DNA of 64,000 nt from Candidatus Latescibacterota bacterium (lineage in GTDB: Bacteria; Krumholzibacteriota; Krumholzibacteriia; WVZY01): NCBI GenBank assembly GCA_963791045.1, contig CAWBQK010000009.1, positions 32,001 to 96,000 of the forward strand, given 5' to 3'. Below the pieces are notes generated by a model, which ran no database searches, was not told where the DNA came from, and saw nothing but the letters and a program-made list of their open reading frames with translations. The position numbers were made by a program, and so were the translations under genes. This document shows, one piece after another, positions 5,580-27,168 of the stretch. Positions within the stretch are counted from its first letter, which is position 1; each line of letters starts with the position of its first letter.

Positions 5580-6998
5580 TTACCACTCGGGGTTTTCCGC
5601 GGTAAGATATTCGTGGATCGATCGTGCCGCTTTGCGTCCGGCGCCCATCGCCATAATAACGGTTGCGGCTCCTGTCATCACGTCGCCACCCGTCCACACA
5701 CGCGGTTTCGAGGTCTTGCCCGTCTCGTCGTCGGCGGCGATATTGCCTTTTCTTCCGATGTCGAGTCCCGGGGTCGTCTGGGCGATCAAGGGGTTCGGGC
5801 TGTTTCCGATCGCGCACACAATCGCGTCGACGGGGACCAGCGTCTCCGAGCCTTCGACGGGCACGGGCCGGCGGCGCCCCGACTCGTCGGGTTCTCCCAG
5901 CTCCATCCTTTTGCACTCCATCTCCTTGACCCAACCGTTTTCGTCACCGATATAACGAAGCGGCAGTGTCAGAAGATCGAATATGACGCCTTCTTCCTCC
6001 GCATTTTCGACTTCTTCGAGTCGCGCGGGAAGTTCGTCCCTCGACCGCCGGTACACTATGTGGGTTTCGGCGCCCAGTCGCAGCGCGGTCCTGGCGCAGT
6101 CCATGGCCACGTTGCCCCCACCGACGACGAACACTTTCTTGTGGTTCTTGATCGGTGTACCGCTACCCGGGAGATAACCCTTCATCAGGTTCATTCGCGT
6201 CAGGTATTCGTTGGCCGAGTACACGCCGTTGAGGTTTTCTCCGGGGATATCCATAAACCACGGAAGCCCGGCGCCCGAACCGACAAAACAGGCGTCGTAT
6301 TCTTCGAGCAGGCTGTCAATCGTTCTCGTCCTGCCGATGATATAGTCCGTCACCATCTCCACGCCGAGTTTCTCGAGATAGTCCACTTCGCGTTTGACGA
6401 TCTTCTTGGGCAATCTGAATTCCGGAATTCCGTAGATCAATACGCCGCCCATTTCGTGGAGCGCTTCAAAAATCGTGACACCGTGACCCTGTTTGATGAG
6501 ATCGCCCGCAACGGTCAACCCCGCGGGGCCTCCACCGATTACCGCAATCTTCTTGCCCGTCGCCGGCGGAATCTCCGGCAGCTTGAGATTTTCCTGTTCG
6601 GCTTCCCAGTCGGCGAGGAACCGTTCGACACGGCCGATGGCAAGCTCGCCGCCCTTTTTTTGCAGTGCGCACACGCCCTCGCACTGGTCTTCCTGTGGGC
6701 ACACCCTTCCACACACGGCTGGAAGCAGGTTTTTGTCTTTGAGTATGCGGACACCTTCGGCGAAATCCCCTTCGGCCACCGCGGCCATCATCCCCGCGAT
6801 ATCGATCTCCACCGGACAGCTGCTAACACACCTCGGCTTCTTGCATACGAGACACCGGGCGGCTTCTTCCATCGCCAATTCCGCTGTGTATCCAAGCGCG
6901 ACTTCATCGAAATTGTGCGCGCGCACATCTTCGGCCTGTTTGGGCATCTCTCTTCTATTGAGATCGATCTTCTTTTTTTCTTTCTTGGGTTCGGCCAC
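5580..6998 (-). CDS. nfnB: NfnB/SudA: GltD-like large subunit of electron-bifurcating transhydrogenase
   Basis: CLVCKKPRCVSSCP, CGRVCPQEDQCE, GGGPAG (FAD), VGGGNVAMD and YRRS (NADPH); adjacent to an nfnA-like gene. Confidence 0.9.
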   Translation of the reverse strand: MAEPKKEKKKIDLNRREMPKQAEDVRAHNFDEVALGYTAELAMEEAARCLVCKKPRCVSSCPVEIDIAGMMAAVAEGDFAEGVRILKDKNLLPAVCGRVCPQEDQCEGVCALQKKGGELAIGRVERFLADWEAEQENLKLPEIPPATGKKIAVIGGGPAGLTVAGDLIKQGHGVTIFEALHEMGGVLIYGIPEFRLPKKIVKREVDYLEKLGVEMVTDYIIGRTRTIDSLLEEYDACFVGSGAGLPWFMDIPGENLNGVYSANEYLTRMNLMKGYLPGSGTPIKNHKKVFVVGGGNVAMDCARTALRLGAETHIVYRRSRDELPARLEEVENAEEEGVIFDLLTLPLRYIGDENGWVKEMECKRMELGEPDESGRRRPVPVEGSETLVPVDAIVCAIGNSPNPLIAQTTPGLDIGRKGNIAADDETGKTSKPRVWTGGDVMTGAATVIMAMGAGRKAARSIHEYLTAENPEW

Positions 6999-7061
6999 TG
7001 TATTAATCCTCTTGCTTGACGAATTGCCTATTACAAAATCTTGATATTTGATTTCCGCCTG

Positions 7062-7907
7062 CTATTGCGACAGGCAGGTCCGCTTCTTACACCCGCTCGT
7101 CTTGATGGATTTGGTTTCTTCGGCGACGTATGACTTCCGCCTCTGAAACAGCTCATCCCAATCCACCTCGTGTCCGTCAAAATCGGGACCATCCACGCAG
7201 GCAAACTTGGTTTCCGATCCAACCGTCACGCGGCAAACGCCGCACATTCCCGTGCCGTCGATCATGATTGGGTTCAAGGCGACAATCGTCTTGATCCCCA
7301 GGGGACGGCTCGCGTCGCAGCCTTTTTTAAGGAGGAGCGTACAGCCGTTTATAATGATCCGGTTGACGGGCACACCAAGCGACTCAATGATTTCGGGAAG
7401 CTGGTCAACGTGCCCCTTGATTCCTTTTGTGCCGTCGCGAGTGATGTAAATAATCTCGTCGGCCACGTCGCGCAGTTTCTCTTCCCAATACATGAGATAG
7501 GAGCTTCTGCTCTCCATCACCACGACGACCTTGTTGTTTTTCTCTTTCAACCCGCGGGCAATCGGATACACACTCCCGATTCCGTAACACCCACACAAAA
7601 GGAGAACCGTCCCAAACTCCTCAATCTCTGACGGCGTCCCCAACGGCCCCGCAAGAGTCGGAATACTATCGCCCTCTCTTAGCTCCGAGAGCTTTCCGGT
7701 TGTGTGTCCCACGTTCTGAACGACGGTGGTTACCGTTCCTTTTTCCGCATCCCAGTCGGAAAGCGACAACGGTATCCTTTCACCCTCCTCGTCCGCACGG
7801 ACAATAATGAACTGTCCGGGCTGAGCGGACTTTGCGACCGCGGGCGCTTCAAATGTCATGCGAAAAGCATTCGGGATGATCATCTCGGACTTGACCAGCT
7901 TAAACAT
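7062..7907 (-). CDS. nfnA: NfnA/SudB: PyrK-like FAD/[2Fe-2S] small subunit
   Basis: PGQF...ERIPLS, GPLG, PIMIDGTGMCGVCRV, FACVDGPDF. Confidence 0.88.
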   Translation of the reverse strand: MFKLVKSEMIIPNAFRMTFEAPAVAKSAQPGQFIIVRADEEGERIPLSLSDWDAEKGTVTTVVQNVGHTTGKLSELREGDSIPTLAGPLGTPSEIEEFGTVLLLCGCYGIGSVYPIARGLKEKNNKVVVVMESRSSYLMYWEEKLRDVADEIIYITRDGTKGIKGHVDQLPEIIESLGVPVNRIIINGCTLLLKKGCDASRPLGIKTIVALNPIMIDGTGMCGVCRVTVGSETKFACVDGPDFDGHEVDWDELFQRRKSYVAEETKSIKTSGCKKRTCLSQ

Positions 7908-10428
7908 CTTTTTTCCTTAAGTTTACACGCAGCGTACGCAACCCATCGGTGTCGGGTCCATCCAGTATAGTGCTCAACAAACCCGGCGGCTGTTCATCGA
8001 TCAGGCGAGCGCGCCATATTTTTTCAAAACCGTCCGAATTGACGATAACTTCGTCGCCCTCGGAAACCCCCGCGTTCAATGCGTCGTCGCGGTTCATCTC
8101 GACCACGCCTTCAATAAACAACTCCCCTGTTCCCGGTACGAATTCCCGCAGGGAAAGTCCCCTGTAGGTATGCTCGGAGACTGCGACACGAAGAACAAAC
8201 GGACAGTCGCCGGCATTCTCTTCCGGCTGAGATCCGGCGTCCGCCGCATCGTCCGATCCGGAACGATCCCCCTCCGGCAACGCGGCAAGTTCCATTCGCG
8301 CGGCATCAATATCTTTGTAACCGGCGACGATCTCTGACATTTCTTTTTGAATCTCGCCGACATTCTTGAAATCAAAACCGCTCTTCCCCATTTTTCTCGC
8401 GATCCGGCACAGGACATCCCAATCGGGCAGCGCATCCCCGGGAGGATCGACGATCTTACGCACCCTCTGTATCCGTCCCTCACCGTTGACAAAGGTGCCG
8501 TCCGCTTCGGAGAACGCCGCCGAAGGCAGTGAAAGGTCCGGATTGACGTCCGGCAGGGCCGGATAAATATTTTGATAGATCAAGAAATCGGTTTGAGGCC
8601 GCTCCGCGGGAGAACCATCGCCCACAAGAAAAGTCACCTTCGTTTTTTGCTTGATCGAGAATACGTAAGGCTCCGGCGACGATCCCGATCCGGCAAGATC
8701 GACACCCCACAATTTCGAGAGCTTTTTTATCTGGGCCGCATCGGATGAGGAATACCCACCGGGGAGAATTCCGGAACTGGCACCCATAAGGAGCGAGCCG
8801 AAAAGATTGTTGTGCGGAGGAAGAACGACGACCTTCGCGCCTATCGCCTCGCCGAGCAGTTTTATCGACCGGAGAATGTCCCGGGTCGACTCGCGCTGCA
8901 GAACTTCGGTTCCAACAAGAATGACGGGGTTATCCGCACCCCGCAGCATCGTCGCCGCGTTGAGAACGACTTCATCGACAGCGTCGCCCTCCCGATCAGC
9001 CGGGGGCTTCTCGCCGTTGCCATTGACCGAACCAAGAAGTTTTTCGAAGAACTTTCTCTCGGTGCCGGGTTGCGGCTTGATCCAAAGATCGCTCGATATC
9101 GCCAGTTCATTCGCGCGGGGATTGAGCGTAATAACTCTCGCTCCCCTGGCAACGGCTTTTCGAAGTTCGACGTTTACGACCGACTGAGCGAACTGGACGT
9201 CCAGACCAGCGCAGAATGCTACCTGCGCGTTCTTGATATCGGCGAGAGTTCCCGGCATTCTCAAAAGATCGACATAAGCGTCGAGGTCCGGCCCAAAGAA
9301 ACGCCTCGCATCGGTATCGATGTTGCCGGAACCCATCACGACACGCGTGAATTTTTGAGCGACATATAGATCTTCGCTCGAACAGTTCGCTGACACTACC
9401 ATCCCGAATTCTTCTGGACCACATTCGACAAGTCTCTCGGTCGCCAACGCTACCGCGTCATCCCACGAGCACTCCAACGACACACCATTTTCAAACGCGT
9501 ACGGCTTGGTCACGCGCGTTTCGTCGTTCACCAGCTCCGGAAGACAAAACCGGCCTTTCACGCAAAGTTGAGCATCGCTTACGACCGGGTCTTCGACCGG
9601 CAGACTACCGATGAGTTCATCCCCTTTGGCCAGCAGCTTGACCTGGCAGCCTATACCGCACAGAGGACAAGTCGAAACTTCTTCTTTGTCCGCGACGCCA
9701 TCCCATTTCTTGACTCTTTCCGACAGCGCGCCGGTCGGGCAAACGGCGATACACTCTCCGCAGAACTCGCAGCCCGCGTCGATCTGATCGCAGTCGTATG
9801 CCGTCCCCACCATCGTGTCCGAACCGCGTCTAAGAAACGCCAGAGCGGCCGAACCACGGAGCTCCCCACACACGCGCACGCAGCGCCCACAAAGAATACA
9901 AAGATTGTAGTCGCGGTCGATAAACGGGTCGCCTTTGGTCACTGGAATACCGCGGTATTTGATCGGATACACAAGCTCCTTCACACCGAGATATTCGGCC
10001 ACGTCCTGCAGTTCGCACTGGCCATCCGTGGGGCAGTAACGGCAACCCGTGGTAACACCCGCCTTGCGAACAGTTGTTTGCTTCGCCCGGCAATCATCCT
10101 TCTCGCCGCAAATCAAGCAACTCGACGGATGTTCGCTCAATATTAACTGGAGAATATCGACGCGCGCAGATTGAACGGCTTTCGAATTGGTTTTTACTTC
10201 CATTCCCTCTGTGACCGGCGTCGTACACGCCGCGGGGTATCCGCGCATCCCATCGACCTCGACGACACACATCCTGCATGCGCCAAACGGCGTCAGCTCC
10301 TTGTGGGTGCACAGCGTCGGTATGTATATGCCGTTTTGCTCGGCGGCTTGCAGAATGGTCGATCCCTTCTCGGCCTCGACCAGCTTGCCGTCCATTTTGA
10401 TTTTCATCTTCTGTGCTGTTTTACTCAT
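7900..10428 (-). CDS. NuoG/FdhF-like Fe-S subunit (BfuA-type) with degenerate molybdopterin domain
   Basis: N-terminal [2Fe-2S] (GACRMC), His-ligated cluster, CILCGRC/CEFCGEC, TCPLCGIGC..LCVKG, GTFVNGEGRIQ. The FdhF Cys/Sec-His site reads NIDTDARRFFG. Confidence 0.85.
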   Translation of the reverse strand: MSKTAQKMKIKMDGKLVEAEKGSTILQAAEQNGIYIPTLCTHKELTPFGACRMCVVEVDGMRGYPAACTTPVTEGMEVKTNSKAVQSARVDILQLILSEHPSSCLICGEKDDCRAKQTTVRKAGVTTGCRYCPTDGQCELQDVAEYLGVKELVYPIKYRGIPVTKGDPFIDRDYNLCILCGRCVRVCGELRGSAALAFLRRGSDTMVGTAYDCDQIDAGCEFCGECIAVCPTGALSERVKKWDGVADKEEVSTCPLCGIGCQVKLLAKGDELIGSLPVEDPVVSDAQLCVKGRFCLPELVNDETRVTKPYAFENGVSLECSWDDAVALATERLVECGPEEFGMVVSANCSSEDLYVAQKFTRVVMGSGNIDTDARRFFGPDLDAYVDLLRMPGTLADIKNAQVAFCAGLDVQFAQSVVNVELRKAVARGARVITLNPRANELAISSDLWIKPQPGTERKFFEKLLGSVNGNGEKPPADREGDAVDEVVLNAATMLRGADNPVILVGTEVLQRESTRDILRSIKLLGEAIGAKVVVLPPHNNLFGSLLMGASSGILPGGYSSSDAAQIKKLSKLWGVDLAGSGSSPEPYVFSIKQKTKVTFLVGDGSPAERPQTDFLIYQNIYPALPDVNPDLSLPSAAFSEADGTFVNGEGRIQRVRKIVDPPGDALPDWDVLCRIARKMGKSGFDFKNVGEIQKEMSEIVAGYKDIDAARMELAALPEGDRSGSDDAADAGSQPEENAGDCPFVLRVAVSEHTYRGLSLREFVPGTGELFIEGVVEMNRDDALNAGVSEGDEVIVNSDGFEKIWRARLIDEQPPGLLSTILDGPDTDGLRTLRVNLRKKDV

Positions 10429-12316
10429 TGGTTCCACCTGCTTCGTTCCCTACAAGAAGTCCGTCGCCGGCGACGGCTCCGAATTCACATATCTCATAAC
10501 ACGCCCGGCATTTCACACACTTGGTCGGATCCAGGACATGCGGCACCCTCTTTTCGCCGGTAATCGCCCCGGTCGGGCACGCCCTCATGCAGCGAAGACA
10601 ACCCGTACACAATTCCGGGATAATCCGGAACTCGACGAGATCACTGCAAATCACCGCGTCACATCTCTTGTCGTTTATGTGAGCAAGGTATTCCGAACGG
10701 AAATAGCGAATCGTGGTCAGCGCCGGATTCGGCGCCGTTTGCCCGAGACCGCACAACGATGTGTTGCGGATAGTCTCCCCGAGGGATTCGAGCGTGTCGA
10801 GATCCTCTTCAACGCCTTCCCCTCGTGTGATCCTCTCGAGAATATCGACCATGTGTCGCGTGCCGATTCGGCACGGGTTGCACTTGCCGCACGACTCGGC
10901 CTGGGTAAAATTCAAAAAGTACTTGGCCACATCCACGACGCAGGTATCCTCATCCATTACGATCAGACCACCCGAACCCATTATCGATCCTGCTTGCGCC
11001 AGTGATTCATATTCCACCGGCGTGTCGAGAAACTCCTTGGGAAGACAACCGCCCGAAGGACCGCCCGTCTGAACCGCTTTGAATTCCTTGATCGAACCGC
11101 CGCCGATGTCGAAAATGATTTCCCTGAGCGTGGTCCCCATCGGCACCTCGATGAGACCCGTGCGGGCAACCTTGCCGACAAGTGAAAACGTCTTTGTGCC
11201 GCAGCTCTTTTTGGTTCCGTACTGGCTGTACCAATCGGCCCCGTTTCTCAGAATGCTCGGCAGCGAAGCGAGAGTTTCGACGTTGTTGATAACTGTCGGC
11301 TTTTTCCAGAGACCGGAAACCGCGGGGTAAGGCGGCCGCGATCTGGGCATTCCGCGCTCGCCTTCGATCGACGCGATGAGCGCCGTTTCCTCTCCGCAAA
11401 CAAACGCGCCAGCGCCTTCTTTGATAGAAATATCAAAATCAAACCCGGAGCCGAGGATGTTCTTTCCGAGAAGCCCGAACTTTCGAATCTGCCCCACCGC
11501 TTTTTTCAAACGGGCCACGGCGAGCGGGTACTCCGCCCTTATATAGATGTAACCATGCGCCGCTCCAATTGCGTACGCGGCAATCAACAAACCCTCTAGA
11601 AGCGCGTGCGGGTCCCCCTCAATGAGAGAACGGTTCATGAACGCGCCCGGATCGCCTTCATCGGCATTGCATATCATGTATTTGGTATCGCCCGGAGCAT
11701 TCCGGCAAAACTCCCATTTCTTTGCCGTCGTAAACCCGGCGCCGCCGCGGCCCCGGAGCCCCGCCGCCGACACCTCGGCGATCACCTGCTCCGGCCCATC
11801 CGCGAGCGCAGCCTTCAATCCAAGGTATCCGTCATTCGCAAGATAGTGGCCTACATTTTCCGGATCGATGATACCGCAGTTTTTGAGGACTATTCTCACC
11901 TGGGGTTTAAGCATCGGCAGGTCGAAAAACCGCGGCAAATCCCCGACGGATTCTTCGCCCTCTTTGCCGAAGTGGCCAACGGCAAAGCGCTGGAGCGGAG
12001 CGCCGTCCATGACATGCGATTTGATAATCCGCCGCGCATTCTTTGCGGTCACGTTCGAATAGCTGACCCGAGGCTCTCCGGGCATCGCGATGTCCATTAG
12101 CGGTTCGAGATAGCACGGTCCAATGCAGCCGACTTCCACGATTTTCGCTTCGAGCTTGAACTCCTCGAGCGACTCCTTGATCGTCTCCATCACCTGGAGC
12201 GCACCGGCGGCGCGTCCGCACGATGCCATCCCCAGATAGATGACGGGCACCTCGCTGGTCATCAGCGTCGCCCAATCTTCGTCTGCCTTTCTAATCGTGT
12301 TCAGAAAATCATTCAT
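10421..12316 (-). CDS. nuoF: NuoF/HydB-like FMN-NADH subunit (BfuB-type) with N-terminal thioredoxin-like Fe-S domain and C-terminal 2x[4Fe-4S]
   Basis: GRGGAGF, NADEGDPGAFM, GAFVCGEETAL, GGPSGG, ESCGKCNPCR, HINDKRCDAVIC, CTGCLRC/CVKCRAC. Confidence 0.92.
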   Translation of the reverse strand: MNDFLNTIRKADEDWATLMTSEVPVIYLGMASCGRAAGALQVMETIKESLEEFKLEAKIVEVGCIGPCYLEPLMDIAMPGEPRVSYSNVTAKNARRIIKSHVMDGAPLQRFAVGHFGKEGEESVGDLPRFFDLPMLKPQVRIVLKNCGIIDPENVGHYLANDGYLGLKAALADGPEQVIAEVSAAGLRGRGGAGFTTAKKWEFCRNAPGDTKYMICNADEGDPGAFMNRSLIEGDPHALLEGLLIAAYAIGAAHGYIYIRAEYPLAVARLKKAVGQIRKFGLLGKNILGSGFDFDISIKEGAGAFVCGEETALIASIEGERGMPRSRPPYPAVSGLWKKPTVINNVETLASLPSILRNGADWYSQYGTKKSCGTKTFSLVGKVARTGLIEVPMGTTLREIIFDIGGGSIKEFKAVQTGGPSGGCLPKEFLDTPVEYESLAQAGSIMGSGGLIVMDEDTCVVDVAKYFLNFTQAESCGKCNPCRIGTRHMVDILERITRGEGVEEDLDTLESLGETIRNTSLCGLGQTAPNPALTTIRYFRSEYLAHINDKRCDAVICSDLVEFRIIPELCTGCLRCMRACPTGAITGEKRVPHVLDPTKCVKCRACYEICEFGAVAGDGLLVGNEAGGTNE

Positions 12317-12761
12317 ATTTTTCCAAAATTTCGTTGAGGTCGTTGACAGTGACACGGCTGTGAATCTCGTCCCCTATTTTTACAACGGGCGCGAGCGCGC
12401 AGCACCCAAGACATGCGGCGCGTTCGAAATCATAACGTCCGTCTTCCGTGGTTTGGCCCGGCGATACTCCAAGCTCTCGTTGGATACCTTCACTGAGAAC
12501 ATGCCCCCCGGCAACATGGCAGGCAGTGCCCAGGCAAACCTTAACCGAGTGCCTCCCTGGCTCTGTGAATCGGAACTGGGAGTAAAACGACGCGACGCCA
12601 AAAATCTTGCTTTCGGAAATCTTCAAAAAACGCGAAATACGTTTGACGGTCTCTTTCGAGATAAAACCGTCTTTCTCTTGAAAGTCCTGAAGGATCGCAA
12701 TCAGTTCACCCTGCTTTCCTTCAAATTCGGAAAATGTGCTCGTCGAATCTTTATCAATCAT
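12309..12761 (-). CDS. nuoE: NuoE/HydC-like [2Fe-2S] subunit (BfuC-type)
   Basis: VASFYSQF, VCLGTACHVAG, ACLGCCALAP. Confidence 0.92.
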   Translation of the reverse strand: MIDKDSTSTFSEFEGKQGELIAILQDFQEKDGFISKETVKRISRFLKISESKIFGVASFYSQFRFTEPGRHSVKVCLGTACHVAGGHVLSEGIQRELGVSPGQTTEDGRYDFERAACLGCCALAPVVKIGDEIHSRVTVNDLNEILEKYE

Positions 12762-12822: not shown

Positions 12823-13416
12823 TCAGCTCGAGGCGGTGTTGTCCTTGTCTCTGGGTTTTCTTTTGTGCAGATGATAATAACAAGTCCGCTTTACGACATC
12901 TCGCAGCAGACATTTCTCGCGGAAGTAAATCCCGCACCGGAAACACAGCTCCGGCGGCGCGGTTTCCAACTCGACGATATCGGCGGACAACCGATCGAGA
13001 AGATCCGCGGTCTGGATGAAATCCTCCGGCATAAACTGTCGAAACAGGCCGTCGAGTACCTTGTCCTGGACCTTTTCGTATCTTTCGAGCAATGAATGTG
13101 CTTCCGGCGTAAGAGACAACTCGTTCACGCGGCGGTCGGTCTTCGATTCCACGCGCAGGAGATATCCACGGCGAACGAGTCTGTCGACCGCCTTGCTCGC
13201 GGCGGCGTTGGTCACCCGGCAAAAAGCAGCCACTTCGGTTATGCTTTCAACATTGGTCGAAGCCACAAGCTTGAGAAGCCTGAGCTGGGAGATGGTGACC
13301 TCCCCACCAAGTTCCTCTCGAAGATGCTCCATCATCAACTCGTCCACCGCGGAACTGAAGATATGCATGCTCGCGAGGAAGTCGTTGATAATCCTGGTTC
13401 GCTCTTTCACAGCCAC
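12823..13416 (-). CDS. MarR-family regulator with C-terminal Cys-rich tail
   Basis: TISQLRLL..NAAASKAVDRL..DRR winged HTH; CFRCGIYFREKCLLRDVVKRTC; AAGGAG RBS before GTG 13416. Confidence 0.88.
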   Translation of the reverse strand: MAVKERTRIINDFLASMHIFSSAVDELMMEHLREELGGEVTISQLRLLKLVASTNVESITEVAAFCRVTNAAASKAVDRLVRRGYLLRVESKTDRRVNELSLTPEAHSLLERYEKVQDKVLDGLFRQFMPEDFIQTADLLDRLSADIVELETAPPELCFRCGIYFREKCLLRDVVKRTCYYHLHKRKPRDKDNTASS

Positions 13417-13481: not shown

Positions 13482-13511
13482 TATATGGTGTTAATATTAT
13501 ATGGTGTTAAT
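13482..13511. promoter_or_regulatory. 14-bp direct repeat (TATATGGTGTTAAT x2, period 16) overlapping a likely leftward sigma70 promoter
   Basis: Exact copies at 13482-13495 and 13498-13511. Minus strand reads TTGCCA followed 15-17 nt later by TATAAT/TAATAT. Confidence 0.55.
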
Positions 13512-13770
13512 TTGTTTGGCAAGTTTTTTTTTGCGGTGGACGGGATCAGTATTTCGAACACCCATAAAGTGTGGGGTGATTCCGTCCTGGATCCCAAGTA
13601 TTCATATATAAAATATTGTATGACAGCAATGTACGTCAATGTCCAAGCATAATCAGGGTGGGCGGCACGTCAGCAAACACCCAGACCGTCACGGACACAA
13701 CGCCACAACCTAGCCTAATCTATTCGAAACAGTTGAAGTCCCCATTACGCCTGATAAAAACCCCAGGACT

Positions 13771-13815
13771 TTGTGAATTTTTTCCCTTGACCCTACGATT
13801 AACCAGGTTTACTGT
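13771..13815 (+). promoter_or_regulatory. Rightward sigma70 promoter with an overlapping Rex-like half-site
   Basis: TTGACC(13787)-N17-TACTGT(13810). TTGTGAATTTTTTCCCTT at 13771-13788 matches the left arm of the Rex consensus TTGTGAA-N4-TTCACAA. Confidence 0.45.
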
Positions 13816-13935: not shown

Positions 13936-14538
13936 GTGGAATCAGTTCAAAGAACGGCTATCATAAACAACTTCCTCGCCAGCATGAGCATCTTCTCGTC
14001 GGCGACCAATGAACTCATGGCCGAGCAGCTTAAAAGCAAGCTCGGTGGCGAGTTGACCATCTCCCAGTTGAGACTCCTCAAGTTAATCGCAAAAACTGAC
14101 ATTCGAAGCATCAGCGACGTTGCCACATTCCTCGGCGTAAGCAACGCCGCGGCAAGCAAAGCGGTGGACCGCCTGGCCCGGCGCAAACTGGTTTCGAGAA
14201 TCGAATCTCCGGACGACAGACGCGCGACCCGTTTAAAACTCACTCGAAATGGCTCCCAGCTACTCGAACAATACGAGACGGCTCAGAATCATATCCTCGA
14301 AGGACTCTTCCGGCAGTTTATGCCGGAGGACTTTATTCAGTTGGCGGAACTGCTCGATCAGCTTTCCTGCGACATTGTCGAGCACGATTCCGGCCCGCGC
14401 GACGTTTGCTTTCGCTGCGGCATCTATTTCCGTGACAGATGCTCTCTCCGAAGCATTGTCGGCAACGGCTGCGGCTGCGTAAAAATCCGCGATGGGAAAA
14501 ACGTCGACGGCGCCGACACACCCAAACACAATCTGTAG
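13936..14538 (+). CDS. MarR-family regulator with C-terminal Cys-rich tail (paralog of 12823-13416)
   Basis: Same winged HTH; shared LFRQFMPEDFIQ; CFRCGIYFRDRCSLRSIVGNGCGC; GAGGGG before GTG 13936. Confidence 0.88.
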   Translation: MESVQRTAIINNFLASMSIFSSATNELMAEQLKSKLGGELTISQLRLLKLIAKTDIRSISDVATFLGVSNAAASKAVDRLARRKLVSRIESPDDRRATRLKLTRNGSQLLEQYETAQNHILEGLFRQFMPEDFIQLAELLDQLSCDIVEHDSGPRDVCFRCGIYFRDRCSLRSIVGNGCGCVKIRDGKNVDGADTPKHNL

Positions 14539-15135: not shown

Positions 15136-16016
15136 AAAAATATCCGTACTATCCGGGCTGCTCGGCCAAGGGCACCGGCAAAGCCTACGAAGAATCTCTC
15201 CTCGGAGTTTTCGAGGCCCTCGACATTCAACTCGACGAATTGGACGACTGGAACTGTTGCGGGGCGACCGCCTATATGTCAATCGATCAGACCCAGGCAT
15301 GTGCGCTCGCGGGGCGCAACCTCGCGCTCGCCGAGGCGCTGGGCAACGGCCAGGATCTCGTGACTCCCTGCAATGCGTGCTACCTTGTCCTGCACAAAAC
15401 CCAAACCTATCTCAACGAGCATCCGGAAATCCGCGACAAAGTTAAGAAAGCCCTCAACGCGGCGGGACTCAGTTACAAAGGAACGTCGCGAGTTCGCCAT
15501 CCGCTGGATATCCTCGTCAACGACATCGGGATCAAGGCCGTTGGGGAAAGGGTCACGCAGTCGCTGAAAGGGTTGAAAGTCGCCCCGTACTACGGGTGTC
15601 AGATTGTCAGACCCTATGCGCTCTTCGACGACCAGCACGACCCGCAAACGATGGACAAACTCATCAAGGCCACGGGCGCGGAAGTCGTTGACTATCCGTT
15701 CAAGACACGTTGTTGCGGGGCCAGTCAGACGGGGACTCTTCCGGAAACGGGATCTCATCTCGTGTACCAGATTCTCCAGGAGGCCCACTACAGGGGAGCC
15801 GATGTCGTGGCCACAATATGTCCCCTGTGCCAGTTCAACCTCGACGCCTATCAAAAAAAGGTTCGGGGCAAACATGATCTCGAACCGATGCCCGTGGTCT
15901 ACTTCACGCAGTTGCTGGGGATGGCTTTCGGACTGCCGGAAGAAAAAATCGGTTTCAGAAGAAACATCGTGCCGGCCGAGCCGGTCTTGAGAAGGAGAGT
16001 AGCTCATGGCGCCTAA
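15132..16016 (+). CDS. hdrB: Heterodisulfide reductase subunit B-like
   Basis: Two CCG domains: YYPGC..WNCCGA..TPCNAC and YYGC..RCCGA..TICPLC. Confidence 0.92.
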   Translation: MKKYPYYPGCSAKGTGKAYEESLLGVFEALDIQLDELDDWNCCGATAYMSIDQTQACALAGRNLALAEALGNGQDLVTPCNACYLVLHKTQTYLNEHPEIRDKVKKALNAAGLSYKGTSRVRHPLDILVNDIGIKAVGERVTQSLKGLKVAPYYGCQIVRPYALFDDQHDPQTMDKLIKATGAEVVDYPFKTRCCGASQTGTLPETGSHLVYQILQEAHYRGADVVATICPLCQFNLDAYQKKVRGKHDLEPMPVVYFTQLLGMAFGLPEEKIGFRRNIVPAEPVLRRRVAHGA

Positions 16017-19487: not shown

Positions 19488-21053
19488 ATGTCCGACGAAA
19501 GAAATGACGCGCTTAAAGAAACAATAAAAGAGGGCTCCGGCAGAGCCAATGCATCCTACATGAACGCGCGGCGCCGGATCACGATCGATCCAATCACACG
19601 GCTCGAAGGTCACGGCAAGATCGATATCTTTCTCAACGATGAGGGGAATGTCGACCGCGCGTATTTTCAGATCCCCGAACTCAGAGGTTTTGAGAAATTC
19701 GCTGAAGGGCGTCTGTCCGAGGACATGCCCCAAATCACGTCGCGAATTTGCGGTGTATGTCCAACCGCCCATCACATGGCGGGCACCAAGGCCCTTGACG
19801 ATCTCTACAACGTAGAGCCGACGGATACGGCCAAGAAAATCCGCGAGATGATCTACAACATCTTTATGGTGGAGGATCACGCGCTTCACTTCTACTTTCT
19901 CGGCGGACCCGACTTTGTCGTTGGTCCCGGAGCCCCGGCAGCCGAGAGAAACGTCCTGGGTGTCATCGGCAAGGTCGGTATCGACACCGGCAAAAAGGTG
20001 ATCTCGATGCGACGGCGGCTTCGTGAAATCATCACGATGGTCGGCGGCAAGATCATTCATCCGGTATTCGGTCTTCCCGGCGGTGTGGCGCGCGGGATCA
20101 AAAAAGAAGAGATAAAACAGATCCAGGAGATCGCGGCCGAGGCCGTTGAGTTCGGCAAGTTCACGCTGGATATTCTCAAAAAAGTCGTCCTCGAGAACAA
20201 CGACTACGTCAACCTGATCGTGTCCGACGCGTTCACACACAACACCTATTACATGGGTCTCGTGGATGAAAACAATAAAGTCAACTTCTACGATGGAAAG
20301 ATCCGCGTCGTCGACCCCGAGGGCAAGGAATATGCGAAATTCAACACCCAGGATTATCTCGATCACATAAACGAGCATGTCGAGCCCTGGAGCTATGTCA
20401 AATTCAGCTTCCTGAAGAACGTCGGATGGAACGGTTTCAACGATGGCGTAGATAGCGGCATCTATTGTGTGGCCCCGCTCGCCCGCCTGAACGTGGCGGA
20501 TGGAATGGCCACACCGGTTGCCCAGGAAGCCTACGAGAAGTATTTCGAGGTCCTCGGCGGCAAGCCGGTACACCACACACTGGCCAACCACTGGGCCCGC
20601 GTCGTCGAATTGATCTACGCTGCTGAACGTTTCCAGGAGCTTGCCAACGATCCACAGATCACCGAACCCAATATTCGCAATCTGCCCACGGAGAAACCAA
20701 CCAGGGGCATCGGCGTCGTCGAAGCGCCGCGCGGGACGCTTTTCCACGATTACCAGACGGACGAACGCGGAGTGATCACAAAAGCCAACCTGATCGTGGC
20801 GACTCAGAACAACTCGGCACGCACCGCGATGAGCGTGGAAAAAGCGGCCAAGGGCTTGATCTCCAACAACAATGTAACTGATGAAATCTTGAACGAGGTC
20901 GAGATGGCTTTCCGCGCGTACGATCCGTGCCACGCGTGCGCGACGCATTCGTTGCCCGGAAGCATGCCGCTGGTTCTTCGGATCCGCGACCTCAAGGGCG
21001 AGACAAACATGATGATTCGGCGGGATACGAATGGCAGCATCCACAAAGAATAA
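19488..21053 (+). CDS. mvhA: [NiFe]-hydrogenase large subunit, group 3c-like MvhA
   Basis: TRLEGHG, L1 SRICGVCPTAH, EAPRG, L2 RAYDPCHACATH plus cleavable C-terminal extension. Confidence 0.93.
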   Translation: MSDERNDALKETIKEGSGRANASYMNARRRITIDPITRLEGHGKIDIFLNDEGNVDRAYFQIPELRGFEKFAEGRLSEDMPQITSRICGVCPTAHHMAGTKALDDLYNVEPTDTAKKIREMIYNIFMVEDHALHFYFLGGPDFVVGPGAPAAERNVLGVIGKVGIDTGKKVISMRRRLREIITMVGGKIIHPVFGLPGGVARGIKKEEIKQIQEIAAEAVEFGKFTLDILKKVVLENNDYVNLIVSDAFTHNTYYMGLVDENNKVNFYDGKIRVVDPEGKEYAKFNTQDYLDHINEHVEPWSYVKFSFLKNVGWNGFNDGVDSGIYCVAPLARLNVADGMATPVAQEAYEKYFEVLGGKPVHHTLANHWARVVELIYAAERFQELANDPQITEPNIRNLPTEKPTRGIGVVEAPRGTLFHDYQTDERGVITKANLIVATQNNSARTAMSVEKAAKGLISNNNVTDEILNEVEMAFRAYDPCHACATHSLPGSMPLVLRIRDLKGETNMMIRRDTNGSIHKE

Positions 21054-21504
21054 CCCGAAAACCCGTCTCCTTTGCCTCGGGAACGACATTCTCTCCGATG
21101 ACGCGATCGGAATTCGCGTGGCCAACGAGCTACGCGGACGGCTGCCGGAAGCGGTGGATGTCGTCGACAGCATGGAATCGGGTTTTCATCTTCTCGACTA
21201 TCTTCTCGGTGTCGACCGGGTCATCGTTGTCGACTCGGTCAAGACCGGCGGCGAGCCCCCCGGTTTTGTGTACGAGCTCGCCGAAGGCGATATTGATACG
21301 ATTCCAGGCACTTCTCCCCACTATATCGGACTTTTCGAAACGCTCGCCCTGGGCAGAGAACTCGGTCTGGACGTCGCCACCGAGCTTGTCATTGTCGCCA
21401 TCGAAGTGGTAGACTGTATGACCGTCGGCGGGGATATGAACCCTGTTGTTGAACAGGCGATTCCCGGCGTAATCAAGAGGGTGGAGGCTTTGGTGGGTCA
21501 ATAA
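21031..21504 (+). CDS. Hydrogenase maturation endopeptidase
   Basis: LGNDILSDDAIG, IVVDS, SPH. Confidence 0.88.
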   Translation: MAASTKNNPKTRLLCLGNDILSDDAIGIRVANELRGRLPEAVDVVDSMESGFHLLDYLLGVDRVIVVDSVKTGGEPPGFVYELAEGDIDTIPGTSPHYIGLFETLALGRELGLDVATELVIVAIEVVDCMTVGGDMNPVVEQAIPGVIKRVEALVGQ

Positions 21505-21851
21505 TGCACGAGTTTGGAATCGCTAGTTCTATTTTCGAGACAATAAAGTCTGAAGCCGAAAAACAACCGGGAACCCGGATTGTCGCTTTGGGGCTCAAAA
21601 TCGGCGAAGTCTCCGGTGTTGAGCCTGATTCCCTTGAATTCTGCCTGCACGCCCTCGTCAAGGATACCGAGTTCGACCCACTTGCCATAGAATTCGAGGC
21701 CTCCCCACGGCGCCAACGATGTCCCGAGTGCAATAACGAGTTCGATGTAGTAGACTATGAGGTGGCCTGCCCGGAATGTGGTGAGCTACGCACACAGCTC
21801 GTATCCGGGGATGAATTGGAGATTCTTTATTTAGAGGTGGAAGATACATGA
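21504..21851 (+). CDS. hypA: Nickel metallochaperone HypA
   Basis: MHE start, two CPEC, GDEL. Confidence 0.95.
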   Translation: MHEFGIASSIFETIKSEAEKQPGTRIVALGLKIGEVSGVEPDSLEFCLHALVKDTEFDPLAIEFEASPRRQRCPECNNEFDVVDYEVACPECGELRTQLVSGDELEILYLEVEDT

Positions 21852-22510
21852 GCCGTGTGCAGGTTAAACGCAAAGTCCTCAAGGAAAACGACCGCATCGC
21901 CGAGGAGCTCAGAAACCAGTTCAGTTCGCAGCGCGTGCTGACGCTCAACCTGATCAGCTCTCCCGGCGCGGGCAAGACTTCCCTTCTCGAACAATCGCTC
22001 CAGCATTTCAGCGAAGACGTCCGGACCGCCGTCTTGACGGGCGACATCGAAACCGAAAACGACGCTGAGAGACTGGCCAGCTACGGGTATCCGGTGCGGC
22101 AGATCACGACGGGCGGATCGTGCCACCTTGATGCCCGCATGATAGAGAAGGGGCTCGCCGATCTCGGCGAAGACGGGCTCGATGTTCTCTTTATTGAAAA
22201 CGTCGGTAATCTCGTGTGCCCGGCGAGCTTCGATCTTGGAGAAGCGTCCAAGATCGTGGTGCTGAGCGTCACCGAAGGTGATGACAAACCGCTCAAATAC
22301 CCGTCAACGTTCCTAAAATCAGATTTGCTCGTTTTGAACAAAATAGATCTTTTGCCCCACGTGCCCTTCGATATTTCGAAAGCAAGGGAGAACGCGAAAC
22401 GCGTCCACCCGGATATCGAAATTCTCGAAGTGTCGTGCACGACTGGGGAAGGTGTAGACGCGTGGGTTCGATGGGTGGAGAACCGGCTAGATTCGCTTCG
22501 CTCGGCGTAA
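21848..22510 (+). CDS. hypB: Nickel insertion GTPase HypB
   Basis: SSPGAGKT, CHLDA, ENVGNLVCPASFDLGE, NKID. Confidence 0.95.
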   Translation: MSRVQVKRKVLKENDRIAEELRNQFSSQRVLTLNLISSPGAGKTSLLEQSLQHFSEDVRTAVLTGDIETENDAERLASYGYPVRQITTGGSCHLDARMIEKGLADLGEDGLDVLFIENVGNLVCPASFDLGEASKIVVLSVTEGDDKPLKYPSTFLKSDLLVLNKIDLLPHVPFDISKARENAKRVHPDIEILEVSCTTGEGVDAWVRWVENRLDSLRSA

Positions 22511-22602
22511 TGCCGGAAGGATAAAATGGACGGCCACCGGAAATGGCGGCGCTTTTCAGCCTCTCCGCGCGATTTGGAACAACTATCTTGGGAGACAGAG
22601 GT

Positions 22603-24213
22603 ATGACACAACAGACCGTAGCCCAGCACGTATTGCTCGGTGACGAAGCGGTGGCTCTGGGGGCGATCCACGCGGGGATAACCGCCGCGTACGCGTACCC
22701 GGGCACGCCATCGACGGAAATCACCCAGTACATTTTGAACCACAAAGCCCGCGAGGGCAAGCCGCACGCCGCCTGGTGCGCGAACGAAAAAACCGCCGTC
22801 GAGGAAGGGCTCGGCACCTCGTTCGCCGGCAGACGCGCCCTGGTATCGATGAAACATGTCGGCCTCAATGTGGCCGCGGATCCGTTCATCAATTCGGCGC
22901 TGATATCGATTCACGGCGGCCTCGTACTCGCCGTCGCCGACGATCCGGGGATGCACAGCTCGCAAAACGAACAGGACACCCGCATCCTGGTGGATTTTGC
23001 GCGTGTGATGTGTCTCGAACCGGCCAACCAGCAGGAAGCTTACCAGATGACGCTCGACGCGTTCGACCTCTCCGAGCGTTTCGACATTCCTGTCGTGCTT
23101 CGTCTCGTCACGCGACTGGCGCACAGCCGCGCCGTCGTCGAGGTCGGAGAGGCCCGCGAAGAGAACCCAATCTCGAGAGTGGCCGACAAATCGACCTGGA
23201 TTCTGCTTCCTTCGAACGCGAGACGCCAGTGGCACGAGCTTCTCGGCCGTCAGAAAGACATGCTCGAATACACAGAGCAGTGCCCTCACAACCAACTCGC
23301 TCTCAACGATAAATGGCACGGGCTCGGCGTTATCACGACGGGGATTGCCAAAAATTACTACATGGAAGCGGCCGACGATATGGGAGAAACGCCGTCGCAT
23401 CTCCACATAGGCGCGTACCCGATGCCCGTCGACAAGATCAGAAAACTCGTCGACCATGTCGATCGGGTTCTTATTCTCGAGGAGGGCTACCCCTACGTCG
23501 AGCGTGCCCTGCGGGGAATTCTCCCGATGAAGAAAGACATCCTCGGCAAGGAAAACGGTCGTGTTCCATTGGAAGGCGAACTCAACCCCGACATCGTTCG
23601 GGTTGCGCTGGGTCTCAACATCCCCGAGGGCGTTACCCTCTCGAACGTGAAACTCCCAAATCGGCCGCCCCAGCTCTGCAAGGGATGCCCGCACGGTGAC
23701 GCGTACGGTGCAATCAAAGAGGCGCTCTCGGAGTATGAGAGCACGATGGTGACATCGGATATTGGTTGTTACACGCTCGGCGCGCTGCCTCCCTACTCGG
23801 CAATCGAATCATGCGTGTGCATGGGGGCTTCAATCGGAATGGCCAAGGGCGCCGCCGAGGCAGGCGTTCATCCGGTCGTTGCCGTTATCGGAGACAGCAC
23901 GTTTCTCCATTCCGGTGTGACACCGCTCATGGATGCCGCGACGGCCGACGCCAACATGACCCTTGTCATTCTCGACAACGAGATCGTCGCAATGACGGGA
24001 CTCCAGCCCACGGTGCTGCCCAGTTCCCGGCTTGAAACGCTTATCCCGGGCGTCGGTGTCGCGCCTGAGCATTTCCATGTTCTCGACGCCCATCCAAAGA
24101 AAATAAAAGAGAACACCGACATACTGAAGCGTGAGATCGCGCACAAAGGTCTATCGGTAATCATAATGGTCCGTACGTGTCTCGAAGAGGCCCGCAAAAA
24201 GAAACAGAAGTAG
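22603..24213 (+). CDS. iorA: Indolepyruvate:ferredoxin oxidoreductase alpha subunit (short form)
   Basis: YPGTPSTEI, NEKTA, MKHVGLNVA, SSQNEQD, LCKGCPH, DIGCY, GDSTFLHSG. Confidence 0.92.
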   Translation: MTQQTVAQHVLLGDEAVALGAIHAGITAAYAYPGTPSTEITQYILNHKAREGKPHAAWCANEKTAVEEGLGTSFAGRRALVSMKHVGLNVAADPFINSALISIHGGLVLAVADDPGMHSSQNEQDTRILVDFARVMCLEPANQQEAYQMTLDAFDLSERFDIPVVLRLVTRLAHSRAVVEVGEAREENPISRVADKSTWILLPSNARRQWHELLGRQKDMLEYTEQCPHNQLALNDKWHGLGVITTGIAKNYYMEAADDMGETPSHLHIGAYPMPVDKIRKLVDHVDRVLILEEGYPYVERALRGILPMKKDILGKENGRVPLEGELNPDIVRVALGLNIPEGVTLSNVKLPNRPPQLCKGCPHGDAYGAIKEALSEYESTMVTSDIGCYTLGALPPYSAIESCVCMGASIGMAKGAAEAGVHPVVAVIGDSTFLHSGVTPLMDAATADANMTLVILDNEIVAMTGLQPTVLPSSRLETLIPGVGVAPEHFHVLDAHPKKIKENTDILKREIAHKGLSVIIMVRTCLEEARKKKQK

Positions 24214-24223
24214 AGGTGAAGGG

Positions 24224-24808
24224 ATGAAGTTCGACATCGTTCTCTCAGGTGTTGGCGGACAGGGGGTGCTTTCGCTCTCGGCGATCATCGCCTCCGGCGC
24301 CATGAAGGAAAATCTCTTTGTTAAACAGTCCGAAGTGCACGGGATGTCCCAACGGGGCGGAGCGGTTCTCGCAAACCTCAGGATCTCCGACAAGCCGATC
24401 GCAAGCGACTTGATACCTCGAGGCCGTGCCTCGATGATCTTGAGCATGGAACCGCTCGAGAGTCTTCGTTATGTATCGTACCTGTCGCCCGAAGGAGCGT
24501 TGATCACATCGACGACTCCGATGATCAACATTCCCAATTACCCGGATCTCGAGGAACTGCTGGGTCAGATTCGGGGCATTCCGGGGGCGATCCTTGTGGA
24601 AAGCGAGCGGCTCGCAAAATTAGCAGGCTCGCCGAGGGCCGCCAATATGGTCATGGTCGGCGCCGCATCGCACCTGCTTCCCGTCAAAGTCGAAACGATG
24701 GAGCATTACATCGAAAGCGTCTTCAAGAAAAAGGGCGAAAAGATCGTCGAGGCCAACTTGAAGGCGTTTGCGGCGGGGCGCGAAGTCTCGGCCCATGAAC
24801 GCGCATAG
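24224..24808 (+). CDS. iorB: Indolepyruvate:ferredoxin oxidoreductase beta subunit
   Basis: GVGGQG, SEVHGMSQRGG, NMVMVG, NLKAF. Confidence 0.92.
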   Translation: MKFDIVLSGVGGQGVLSLSAIIASGAMKENLFVKQSEVHGMSQRGGAVLANLRISDKPIASDLIPRGRASMILSMEPLESLRYVSYLSPEGALITSTTPMINIPNYPDLEELLGQIRGIPGAILVESERLAKLAGSPRAANMVMVGAASHLLPVKVETMEHYIESVFKKKGEKIVEANLKAFAAGREVSAHERA

Positions 24809-24933
24809 CGCGCTCGCGGGTATTAGCAAAAAGATGATGGGTGTGCGTCATTCACAAAGCGGTGACGCACACCGAGCGCCGTTCGATCCTGTCAGGAAAA
24901 CAACCTACGCATATCCATACAGAGAGTACAACA

Positions 24934-27168
24934 ATGACACGAAATCAGATCCGGGAGGTTCTTGAGTCCGTTAAAGCCGCGGGGCGTGACGTCCTCCTTG
25001 AAACCGAAGGCATACGCATCCTCGAGGCCCTGGGTTTTGACGTTCCAAAATATGTTTTCATCCAGCGCTCGGGTGAAGTGGCCGCCGTCGATCTGGGCGC
25101 ATTTACAGGCGATCGAGTGGTGGTTAAGGTGATCTCCCCCGACATTCTGCATAAGAGCGATGTCGGGGGTGTTTTGTTTCCGGACAGAAATCACAACGCA
25201 ATCCGCACGGCCGTGGCGGAGATGGAAGAAAGTTTCATCGGCCGAAACATCGAGGGTTACACAATCCACCAAATGGTGTCTTATGACCGTTCGCTCGGCA
25301 ACGAGTTGCTACTCGGGTTAAGATCGACGCCCGACTTCGGACCGGTCGTCGTGTTTGGCGCCGGTGGAATTTACACGGAATATCTCGCGGACAATTTCAA
25401 AACAGGGCGAGACGTCGCCATCATGTCCGCCGAGGTTCCCCCTGTCGGAGGGACCGGGAGAGTTCTCGAGAGAATCGCGCTCACGCCGCTTCTCGTCGGC
25501 GGTCTCCGTGGACAGCGATCAAGGATCGCCGCCGAGGATCTCGAGAGCCTGATGGACAACATGCTCGAGTTCGCCCGGACGTTTGTGCCCAATGAGATTT
25601 CCGAGTTTGAGATAAACCCGCTGGTCGTGTCCGAAGGTCATCTGATCGCACTCGATGTCGTCGTCAAACTCGCCTCCCCCCCGATCGAAACCACGCCGGA
25701 GCGGCCGATCGACAAAATCAGCTATCTTCTTACACCACAATCTGTTGCTGTAATAGGCGTGTCCGAGAAGATGAACCCCGGACACATAATCCTCAACAAT
25801 CTGATACGCGAGGGTTTTGACAAGGATCGCATCTTTGTCATCAAACCCGGGATCGAGGAAATCGAGGGGTGCCGGTGCTACCCCGATGTCGCCTCGCTCC
25901 CGGAAAAGGTGGATCTTTTTGTGCTGAGCGTCTCTGCCGCTCAGACATCGCCCACAGTTACCGAAATTATAAAGACACAAAAAGCGGAAAGCATGATCGT
26001 CATCCCCGGCGGACTCGAGGAGAAGTCGGGCACCGAGACCATTGTTAGCGGCATGCGCGCCGCGCTTCTTGAGTCACGGTCAGATGCATGGAGGGGGCCG
26101 GTCATAAACGGCGGCAACTGTCTTGGGATTCGATCGCTTCCCGGCCGTTACGACACAATGTTCATCCCGCCCCACAAGATCGCGCTTCCGGACAAACCTC
26201 CCGCCCCGCTCGCCGTAGTCAGCCAGAGCGGCGCGTTTTCGATTTCAAAAAATAGCAAGATATCGTGCGTCAACCCGCTCTACACGATCTCGTTCGGAAA
26301 CCAGACGGATCTTACCGTCGGAGATTACCTCACCTATATGAAGGACGATCCCGACGTCGATATTTTTGCCGTTTATGTCGAGGGCTTCAAACCGCTCGAT
26401 GGAATCCGTTTCGTCAAAGCGGCGAAGGAAATCACCGAAATGGGCAAGACGGTGATCCTGTACAAGGCGGGACGTTCGTCCGAAGGGGCGAAAGCGTCGG
26501 CGAGTCATACCGCATCGATCGCGGGTAACTACCCCGTGACGCGCGAGCTGTCGACGAACGCGGGCGTAATCGTCGCCGAGACGATCGCGGATTTCGAAGA
26601 CCTCGTAATGATGTTTACATGCCTTCGTGACAAAGAGGTGGCGGGGTGGCGGCTGGGCGCGATGTCCAACGCGGGTTTCGAATCGGTGGCGATGGCGGAC
26701 AACCTCGGTCGGTTCAGGCTCGAGAATTTTGCGCCGGACACCGATGGGCTTCTTCTTGAGGCATTCAAAAAGATGCGAATCGAAAACATCGTCGACATCC
26801 ACAATCCTCTCGATCTGACGCCGATGACGACCGACTCCGGGTACCAGGCAATCATGCGCGCAATGCTCGGGGACGACGGCGTCGACGTTGGAGTGGTTGG
26901 TTGTGTTCCGATGACACCCGCGCTCAACACGCTCGTGGCTGGCGAAGGTCATCCGGATAACGTTCACTCCGAAAAAGGTATCGTGGCAAGAATGAAGAAG
27001 GTCCGGGACGTATCGACAAAGGCTTGGGTCGCCATCGTCGATGCCGGCCCCGTTTATGACGAGATGACCCGGCTGCTCAAAGAGAACGACATTCCGACGT
27101 TCCGCACGGCAGACCGCGCGCTTCGTTTGTTTCACAGATTCTGTGAGGTTCGGCTCTCGCGGGGCTGA
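24934..27168 (+). CDS. ADP-forming acyl-CoA synthetase (ACD), beta-alpha fusion
   Basis: ATP-grasp KVISPDILHKSDVGGV, FGPVVVFG, EINPL; CoA-binding domain GGNCLG, SQSGA; catalytic SHTASIAG. Confidence 0.88.
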   Translation: MTRNQIREVLESVKAAGRDVLLETEGIRILEALGFDVPKYVFIQRSGEVAAVDLGAFTGDRVVVKVISPDILHKSDVGGVLFPDRNHNAIRTAVAEMEESFIGRNIEGYTIHQMVSYDRSLGNELLLGLRSTPDFGPVVVFGAGGIYTEYLADNFKTGRDVAIMSAEVPPVGGTGRVLERIALTPLLVGGLRGQRSRIAAEDLESLMDNMLEFARTFVPNEISEFEINPLVVSEGHLIALDVVVKLASPPIETTPERPIDKISYLLTPQSVAVIGVSEKMNPGHIILNNLIREGFDKDRIFVIKPGIEEIEGCRCYPDVASLPEKVDLFVLSVSAAQTSPTVTEIIKTQKAESMIVIPGGLEEKSGTETIVSGMRAALLESRSDAWRGPVINGGNCLGIRSLPGRYDTMFIPPHKIALPDKPPAPLAVVSQSGAFSISKNSKISCVNPLYTISFGNQTDLTVGDYLTYMKDDPDVDIFAVYVEGFKPLDGIRFVKAAKEITEMGKTVILYKAGRSSEGAKASASHTASIAGNYPVTRELSTNAGVIVAETIADFEDLVMMFTCLRDKEVAGWRLGAMSNAGFESVAMADNLGRFRLENFAPDTDGLLLEAFKKMRIENIVDIHNPLDLTPMTTDSGYQAIMRAMLGDDGVDVGVVGCVPMTPALNTLVAGEGHPDNVHSEKGIVARMKKVRDVSTKAWVAIVDAGPVYDEMTRLLKENDIPTFRTADRALRLFHRFCEVRLSRG

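Follow-up and report, generated by a model that had tools for sequence, protein, structure and literature searches.

Twin MarR-family paralogs with a conserved C-terminal four-cysteine module, each first in a redox operon of a Latescibacterota bacterium

Canonical repressors of the MarR family (e.g., MarR, MexR, SlyA, FabT, and OhrR) are winged-helix dimers that bind a palindrome overlapping the promoter, are encoded next to their targets, and control genes of efflux or detoxification. Here, we describe two MarR genes, R1 and R2, which lie back to back on contig CAWBQK010000009.1 of a Candidatus Latescibacterota bacterium (assembly GCA_963791045.1). The analyzed stretch of 64,000 nucleotides (positions 32,001 to 96,000 of the contig, forward strand) is referred to as the window, and positions are counted from its first letter. 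R1 and R2 have the winged-helix dimer fold in common with the canonical repressors and likewise adjoin their putative targets, and a promoter-overlapping palindrome is predicted for them. Unlike the canonical repressors, however, R1, R2, and their homologs carry an extra tail of ~40 to 45 residues with four invariant cysteines and an invariant arginine, and their putative targets are energy-metabolism operons.

Metal and redox sensing are known from regulators that resemble R1 and R2 in part. The zinc-sensing MarR proteins AdcR and ZitR show metal-dependent DNA binding and were among the PDB matches of R1 and R2. Their zinc sites lie in the core of the protein and are not known from a C-terminal four-cysteine tail, and the AdcR model NF038251 scored only 33.4 bits for R1 and 43.2 bits for R2 against a cut-off of 175, showing that the pair is not of the AdcR type. 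Functional analogues belong to protein families other than MarR: SurR (Pyrococcus) and Rex (Firmicutes/Thermotogae) are redox-responsive regulators of hydrogenase and electron-carrier genes, SurR sensing via a CxxC disulfide and Rex via binding of NADH/NAD+. Outside the model phyla, little is known about how bacteria regulate electron-routing enzymes of the Hdr-Mvh, Nfn-like, and NuoEFG-like kinds, and we are not aware of any cysteine-ligated tail in a MarR protein. The preliminary description of the window had not recognized the system as a described one and, in agreement with this, no curated family (NCBIfam models) reached its cut-off for R1 or R2, and a literature search at the level of titles and abstracts found no description of a four-cysteine-tail MarR family or of such a tail. 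C-terminal cysteines also occur in ArnR of Corynebacterium glutamicum, a winged-helix protein that binds a [4Fe-4S] cluster through them and controls genes of anaerobic metabolism; the three cysteines of ArnR (179, 193, and 223) lie in a larger sensory domain, which has been likened to TRAPPC3, and the protein is confined to Actinobacteria (PMC12343034). Compared with ArnR, the tail of R1 and R2 has four cysteines within 22 residues, spans only ~40 amino acids, occurs in other phyla, and shows no likeness in sequence. By analogy, ArnR may still serve as a precedent for a winged-helix regulator using C-terminal cysteines for a [4Fe-4S] cluster, although the domain differs.

R1 and R2 are paralogs of the MarR family that have a conserved four-cysteine module at the C-terminus, and a redox operon starts with each of their genes. 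The divergent, back-to-back open reading frames (ORFs; 12823-13449 on the minus strand and 13819-14538 on the plus strand) encode proteins that are 62% identical across 175 amino acids (E 1e-80) and that both score above the Pfam MarR cut-off (PF01047; 33.2 bits for R1 and 42.5 bits for R2, cut-off 24.6). R1 is likely to start at GTG 13416, since AAGGAG is found 8 nt upstream and the homologs are 197 amino acids long. For R2, GTG 13936 is the likely start because it retains the conserved N-terminal stretch RTAIINNFLAS, which is lost from the later-beginning database gene call (P0094, 184 amino acids). An AlphaFold2 (AF2) model with a mean predicted local distance difference test score (pLDDT) of 81.7 displayed the MarR fold, with helical dimerization ends around the winged helix. 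When used as a Foldseek query, the model matched FabT, MarR, MexR, and SlyA over ~130 to 150 columns (E 1e-7 to 1e-5; template modeling score up to 0.86, on the target). The recognition helix VSNAAASKAVDRLVRRG (NAAASKAVDRL) is the same in R1 and R2 and was nearly invariant among the 121 sequences aligned below. The divergent paralog pair, four peptides common to both proteins, a Cx2Cx7Cx9C ending in each, and the absence of such a tail from typical MarR proteins had all been noted in the preliminary description, and all held up: every one of the peptides was found in both translations, the cysteine pattern was read in both, and the matches to solved structures in the PDB, by sequence as well as by fold, all ended at about residue 150 and left the tail uncovered.

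To assess how far the tail is conserved, we made a word-indexed homolog search, which returned 656 proteins at E<=1e-3, and aligned the best 119 foreign matches with R1 and R2 (121 rows; P0094, being R2's own gene call, was left out). The four cysteines (C169, C172, C180, and C190 in R1) and R177 were invariant in 121/121 aligned sequences, which came from Latescibacterota, Gemmatimonadota, and Acidobacteriota. A histidine after the fourth cysteine (e.g., CYYHLHK) was frequent, yet not invariant. A 61-residue tail query against 1.84 billion representatives gave 86 matches at E<=1e-3, nearly all of which were either fragments or proteins of ~200 amino acids in which the tail occupies residues 130-190; among the matches examined, two were confirmed MarR proteins, while four long outliers were unrelated, one being a C2H2 zinc-finger array. 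In a distant branch of the family (~32% identity; relatives of the window's genome), the spacing Cx2Cx7Cx8C was observed in 8/8 members, with the pattern C-[LM]-[RF]-C-[AG]-A-Y-x4-C-P-x7-C-P, i.e., with Cys-Pro pairs. A profile of the tail compared with the PDB and a Pfam scan gave no significant match for the tail, and an ESM Atlas look-up with the tail gave no usable match. The tail of R1 is strongly basic (10 basic and 3 acidic residues per 36; net charge about +7), and DSSP assigned isolated bridges at residues 169 and 190 of the AF2 model, which, as far as the model goes, would place the first and fourth cysteines side by side. Furthermore, in one homolog of 281 amino acids (P0096), the four-cysteine MarR protein continues in frame into a HypC/HupF domain (PF01455, E 1e-24); this fusion may be real or may reflect a missed stop on a 2.4-kb contig. 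The tail is likely to be a metal-binding four-cysteine (Cys4) module holding either Zn or an Fe-S cluster, with roughly even odds between the two and a substantial chance of a purely structural finger.

A promoter was predicted upstream of each regulator gene (Table 1). Gibbs sampling on 81 upstream regions (79 from homologous loci and the two window promoters) yielded the motif TTAACC-N-GGTTAA, located in the spacer that separates a -35 box of the TTG type from the -10 box. In the R1 promoter, two TTAAC half-sites lie 16 bp apart, so that TATATGGTGTTAAT is read twice on the plus strand; this 14-nt repeat was found nowhere in the window beyond the two promoter copies. In many operators, an additional (third) half-site, TTAAC or TCAAC, was located at a distance of 16 bp from the first. 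At <=1 mismatch, TTAACNNNGTTAA was present in 30/79 MarR upstream regions compared to 5/3563 control windows (250 nt each, from the same loci) and 7/1090 low-GC controls, and at <=2 mismatches in 54/79 compared to 55/3563, a contrast that is inflated since one and the same set of upstream regions served for both motif discovery and counting. Six further sites at <=1 mismatch were observed elsewhere in the loci, three of them 280 to 365 bp upstream of hdrC or mvhG; these three are 4 to 10 kb from the regulator and independent of the discovery set. In a scan with a position weight matrix, which itself included the R2 site, that site had the top score in the whole 3.66-Mb genome, and the genome-wide matches were AT-rich. 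R1 and R2 are predicted to bind a common palindrome in their own promoters. The region between the divergent promoters also contains an 11-nt inverted repeat (13538-13548 and 13577-13587; 91% complementary, 28 nt apart), and a search of 13300-14100 against Rfam gave no match.

We then compared the neighborhoods of the family. A pattern scan with one genome per species found 149 relatives, and the best 80 of the 149 loci were analyzed; the scan patterns contained the tail motif, and this set is therefore biased towards tail-bearing members. All 80 loci were from metagenome-assembled genomes, belonging to Latescibacterota, Krumholzibacteriota, Eisenbacteria, Gemmatimonadota, and Acidobacteriota. 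When neighbor genes were scored by tblastn with a fixed query panel, an hdr, mvh, hyp, nuoEFG-like, or gltD-like gene was found within 5 kb of the regulator in 51/80 loci (hdr 24, mvh 20, hyp 17, and gltD-like 12), against a baseline of 2.6% of bases within 5 kb of a panel match in the window's genome (G000). On the same strand, an hdr gene directly followed the regulator in 15 loci, a hyp gene in 13, and a nuo gene in one. Two outcomes that the preliminary description had named as refuting its reading, namely unconserved tail cysteines and homologs unlinked to redox operons, were not observed, except that 29/80 loci showed no such linkage. In the distant branch, genes for 2-oxoacid:ferredoxin oxidoreductase adjoined the regulator in 5/5 members whose neighbors were scanned with Pfam. 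The family was present in 13/26 genomes of the window's order and in 0/124 genomes of seven other families in a phylum sample of 151 genomes, and it is common in Gemmatimonadota and Acidobacteriota; this patchy spread hints at transfer together with the operons. A quick maximum-likelihood tree, in which three non-MarR rows (L059_5843+, L072_14886+, and L073_9664+) were kept on a long branch, placed R2 as sister to L005, which precedes hdrC (Shimodaira-Hasegawa-like approximate likelihood ratio test [SH-aLRT] 89), and united R1 with its nearest relative, L004, located ahead of nuoEFG, as well as with the two copies found in genome G012 (SH-aLRT 94). From this placement, R1 and R2 seem to represent separate lineages, each associated with one of the two operons.

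We propose that R1 and R2 would each bind TTAAC-type operators inside their own promoter and repress their own operon, repression being suggested by the location of the site inside the 17-bp spacer. The Cys4 module would hold a metal (Zn or an Fe-S cluster), the redox or occupancy state of which would set DNA binding. Since the recognition helix is identical in the two proteins, both paralogs may cross-regulate both promoters; a heterodimer, as raised in the preliminary description, is conceivable. The DNA would be released under reducing or anoxic conditions, when the oxygen-sensitive, ferredoxin-linked enzymes are useful. We give an even chance to the core of this proposal, i.e., that the two are paralogous MarR repressors of their own redox operons, acting via TTAAC operators and responding to metal or redox state through the Cys4 module. 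A wider version is possible but doubtful; here, the family would be the first one in bacteria dedicated to the transcriptional control of flavin-based electron-bifurcation and group-3 hydrogenase operons, the ferredoxin/thiol redox poise would be read by the C-terminal Cys4 module through a redox-active Fe-S cluster or as a Zn-thiolate switch, and in Latescibacterota, Gemmatimonadota, and Acidobacteriota alike, the paralog pair with one operator code would keep the pools of H2, NAD(P)H, ferredoxin, and disulfide in balance. Should the tail prove to be a redox or Fe-S sensor, it would represent a new sensing module in one of the largest regulator families and could mark the times at which abundant phyla of soils and sediments switch on hydrogen metabolism. 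The system also offers an easily testable handle, as the protein has 200 amino acids and can be produced in E. coli, the predicted operator is 13 bp long, and four residues are available for mutation.

Several results weigh against this proposal, the inflated motif contrast among them. The R1 promoter departs from the full palindrome by three mismatches, and the palindrome was not enriched genome-wide (31 found and 56 expected), so that no regulon can be drawn beyond the locus. No redox neighbor was found in 29/80 loci, and the housekeeping GTPase gene era directly followed the regulator in 12/80. Among 31 relatives, a NiFe large-subunit match was found in 5/8 genomes with a close form of the regulator and in 3/23 without one; as related genomes are not independent, the linkage is strong when loci are compared and loose when whole genomes are. 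Genome G012, from the family of the window's genome, has a divergent four-cysteine MarR pair of its own (G012:C1:558777-560303; L100:17706-18350 on the minus strand and L101:720-1319 on the plus strand), flanked by Ser/Thr kinases, an LVIVD-repeat protein, and only a 59-amino-acid NuoE remnant, indicating that the pair can outlive its operons. The tail had a pLDDT of 65 to 79 in the full-length AF2 model and of 59 when folded alone, which was too poor for a fold search. Finally, the sub-threshold likenesses of the tail were all to zinc fingers (C2H2 finger 2lvh, E 0.06; GATA profile, 11.9 to 14.3 bits against a cut-off of 26.8), and the C2H2 array P0185, matched by the tail at E 1e-5, is counted among these weak hints, which fit a static finger equally well.

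In such a case, the tail would be a static Zn(Cys)4 finger that stabilizes the dimer or adds DNA contacts (e.g., to the extra TTAAC half-site 16 bp downstream), and any actual signal would come from a small-molecule ligand in the pocket typical of MarR proteins, if a signal exists at all. In addition to the C2H2 and GATA likenesses, this would be in line with the CxxCG knuckle and the net charge read from the tail sequence, with the third TTAAC/TCAAC in many operators, and with the JGI label of the homolog P0107, "uncharacterized C2H2 Zn-finger protein". However, every zinc-finger match was far below its cut-off, the ligand spacing of x2, x7, and x9 matches no canonical finger, C2H2 and GATA included, and the steady link to oxygen-sensitive, ferredoxin-dependent operons in three phyla suggests a related signal. 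These weak hints point to a zinc-finger-like fold no less than to an Fe-S site, and we consider a static finger with an unrelated signal, or no signal, a rather unlikely account of the family.

It could also be hypothesized that the regulators sense the supply of nickel or iron and match the synthesis of NiFe hydrogenase and of the HypAB nickel-insertion proteins to the metal. The hyp genes within 5 kb in 17/80 loci, 13 of them directly downstream, the existence of the HypC fusion homolog, and the histidine that often follows the fourth cysteine are all consistent with this, but that histidine is not invariant, hydrogenase genes are missing from the vicinity of many members that head gltD-like, nuoEFG-like, or 2-oxoacid oxidoreductase genes, and genomes G012, G016, and G017 carry the regulator and gave no NiFe large-subunit match, making metal-supply sensing improbable. 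Similarly improbable is an ordinary ligand-responsive MarR protein with incidental cysteines that senses a pathway metabolite, e.g., arylacetate or acyl-CoA products of IOR and the ADP-forming acyl-CoA synthetase (ACD): iorAB-ACD is present in the R2 operon and beside the homologs L006, L007, L008, and L043, and an indole-3-acetate-binding MarR protein (7l1i) was among the PDB matches, but ACD lies within 5 kb in only 4/80 loci and ior in 2/80, and cysteines that are invariant across branches of ~32% identity are not incidental.

Returning to the operons that R1 and R2 are proposed to repress, the gene orders given in the preliminary description were confirmed by Pfam and NCBIfam, and a hycI-type maturation protease was added to the R2 operon. 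In contrast, its claims of three bifurcation modules and of a complete hub were overstated: annotation was at the domain level, most equivalog cut-offs were missed, and hdrA is frame-broken. On the minus strand, the nuoE-like gene starts 62 nt after R1. The NuoE- and NuoF-like subunits had been assigned to a HydABC/Bfu-type module, but the third subunit is NuoG/FdhA-like with a molybdopterin fold and is not a hydrogenase; Pfam and NCBIfam scans of this 845-amino-acid protein detected no [FeFe]-hydrogenase (H-cluster) domain, and the H-cluster catalytic subunit of a HydABC-type enzyme was thus not found. The NfnAB assignment fared better, as a small FAD/2Fe-2S subunit adjoins a GltD-like subunit and both scored above cut-off, so that the two may form a bifurcating NfnAB. 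On the plus strand, hdrC begins 16 nt after R2, and the genes from R2 onward probably form one transcription unit, as the intergenic gaps are <=33 nt. All six subunits of HdrABC-MvhAGD were recognizable by domain, although they did not reach the NCBIfam equivalog cut-offs. Electron bifurcation by the enzymes of the window is putative and read from their family names.

Table 1. Regulators, promoters, tails, and operon genes of the R1/R2 locus (window positions), with the members of the distant branch
Feature	Positions	Strand	Details
nfnB/gltD-like subunit	5580..6998	-	TIGR01316 578.6 bits, cut-off 471.75
nfnA-like FAD/NAD subunit	7062..7907	-	NF004862 345.7 bits, cut-off 220
nuoG/fdhA-like subunit, 845 aa	7900..10437	-	2Fe-2S, 4Fe-4S, molybdopterin fold; all equivalog cut-offs missed
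nuoF-like FMN/NADH subunit	10421..12355	-	Complex1_51K, NADH_4Fe-4S; two C-terminal 4Fe-4S domains (Fer4 at 577-627)
nuoE-like 2Fe-2S subunit	12309..12761	-	PF01257 E 2e-44; NF005722 140.9 bits, cut-off 141
R1, marR paralog	12823..13416	-	197 aa from GTG 13416; ORF open to 13449 (208 aa)
R1 tail	12862..12957	-	residues 165-196 of the 208-aa ORF; C169, C172, C180, C190
predicted R1 promoter	13482..13522	-	TTGCCA, 17 nt, TAATAT; A-tract upstream; promoter scan
predicted R2 promoter	13787..13815	+	TTGACC, 17 nt, TACTGT; candidate operator TTAACCAGGTTTA at 13799-13811
R2, marR paralog	13936..14538	+	200 aa from GTG 13936; ORF open from 13819
R2 tail	14395..14490	+	C197, C200, C208, C218, plus extra C220
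hdrC	14554-15135	+	Fer4/CCG domains; TIGR03290, TIGR03288 (hdrC/hdrB) below cut-offs
hdrB	15132-16016	+	Fer4/CCG domains; TIGR03290, TIGR03288 (hdrC/hdrB) below cut-offs
hdrA, frame-broken	16006..17991	+	~9 frame switches
mvhD (FlpD domain)	ORF 17995-18804	+	Pfam/NCBIfam
mvhG	18452-19462	+	Pfam/NCBIfam
mvhA	19488-21053	+	Pfam/NCBIfam
hycI-type maturation protease, hypA, hypB	21031..22510	+	Pfam
iorA, iorB, ADP-forming acyl-CoA synthetase (ACD)	22543..27168	+	Pfam/NCBIfam
Distant branch members L091-L098			genomes G002, G005, G007, G011, G019, G020, G025, G027

The break in hdrA was examined by ungapped tblastn with the HdrA of locus L035, in which the match jumps among the three frames. The pieces are 43 to 86% identical to the intact homolog, and the G+C content of the region (62.6%) is above that of its neighbors. 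Contigs of relatives, from one public DNA run that contained relatives' fragments only, differ from the window by hdrA indels at 16168, 16649, 17237/17242, and 17637. Elsewhere in the window's genome (G000:C11:333465-337911), we observed a further cluster of nuoE, nuoF, gltD-like, and nuoG-like genes, in which the nuoF-like matches fall in four separate pieces, suggesting more frame errors in the assembly. Given the indels in the relatives at four of the frame-switch places and this second fragmented gene, the breakage of hdrA is likely to be an assembly error, and it is possible that hdrA is a pseudogene. Reading TGA as selenocysteine in hdrA was rejected, as the in-frame stops arise from the frame shifts.

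Two further observations concern the hydrogenase genes. The FlpD domain of mvhD occupies residues 16-138; the ORF continues for ~130 codons more and shares ~350 nt with mvhG, and the junction may contain a missing stop or a frame error. Just upstream of the window (G000:C9:19377-26759), a second, distant NiFe hydrogenase is encoded together with a protease, hypD, and hypE. Its small and large subunits are 24 to 28% identical to those of Mvh, and with this cluster the C9:19-59 kb region constitutes a hydrogenase/redox island.

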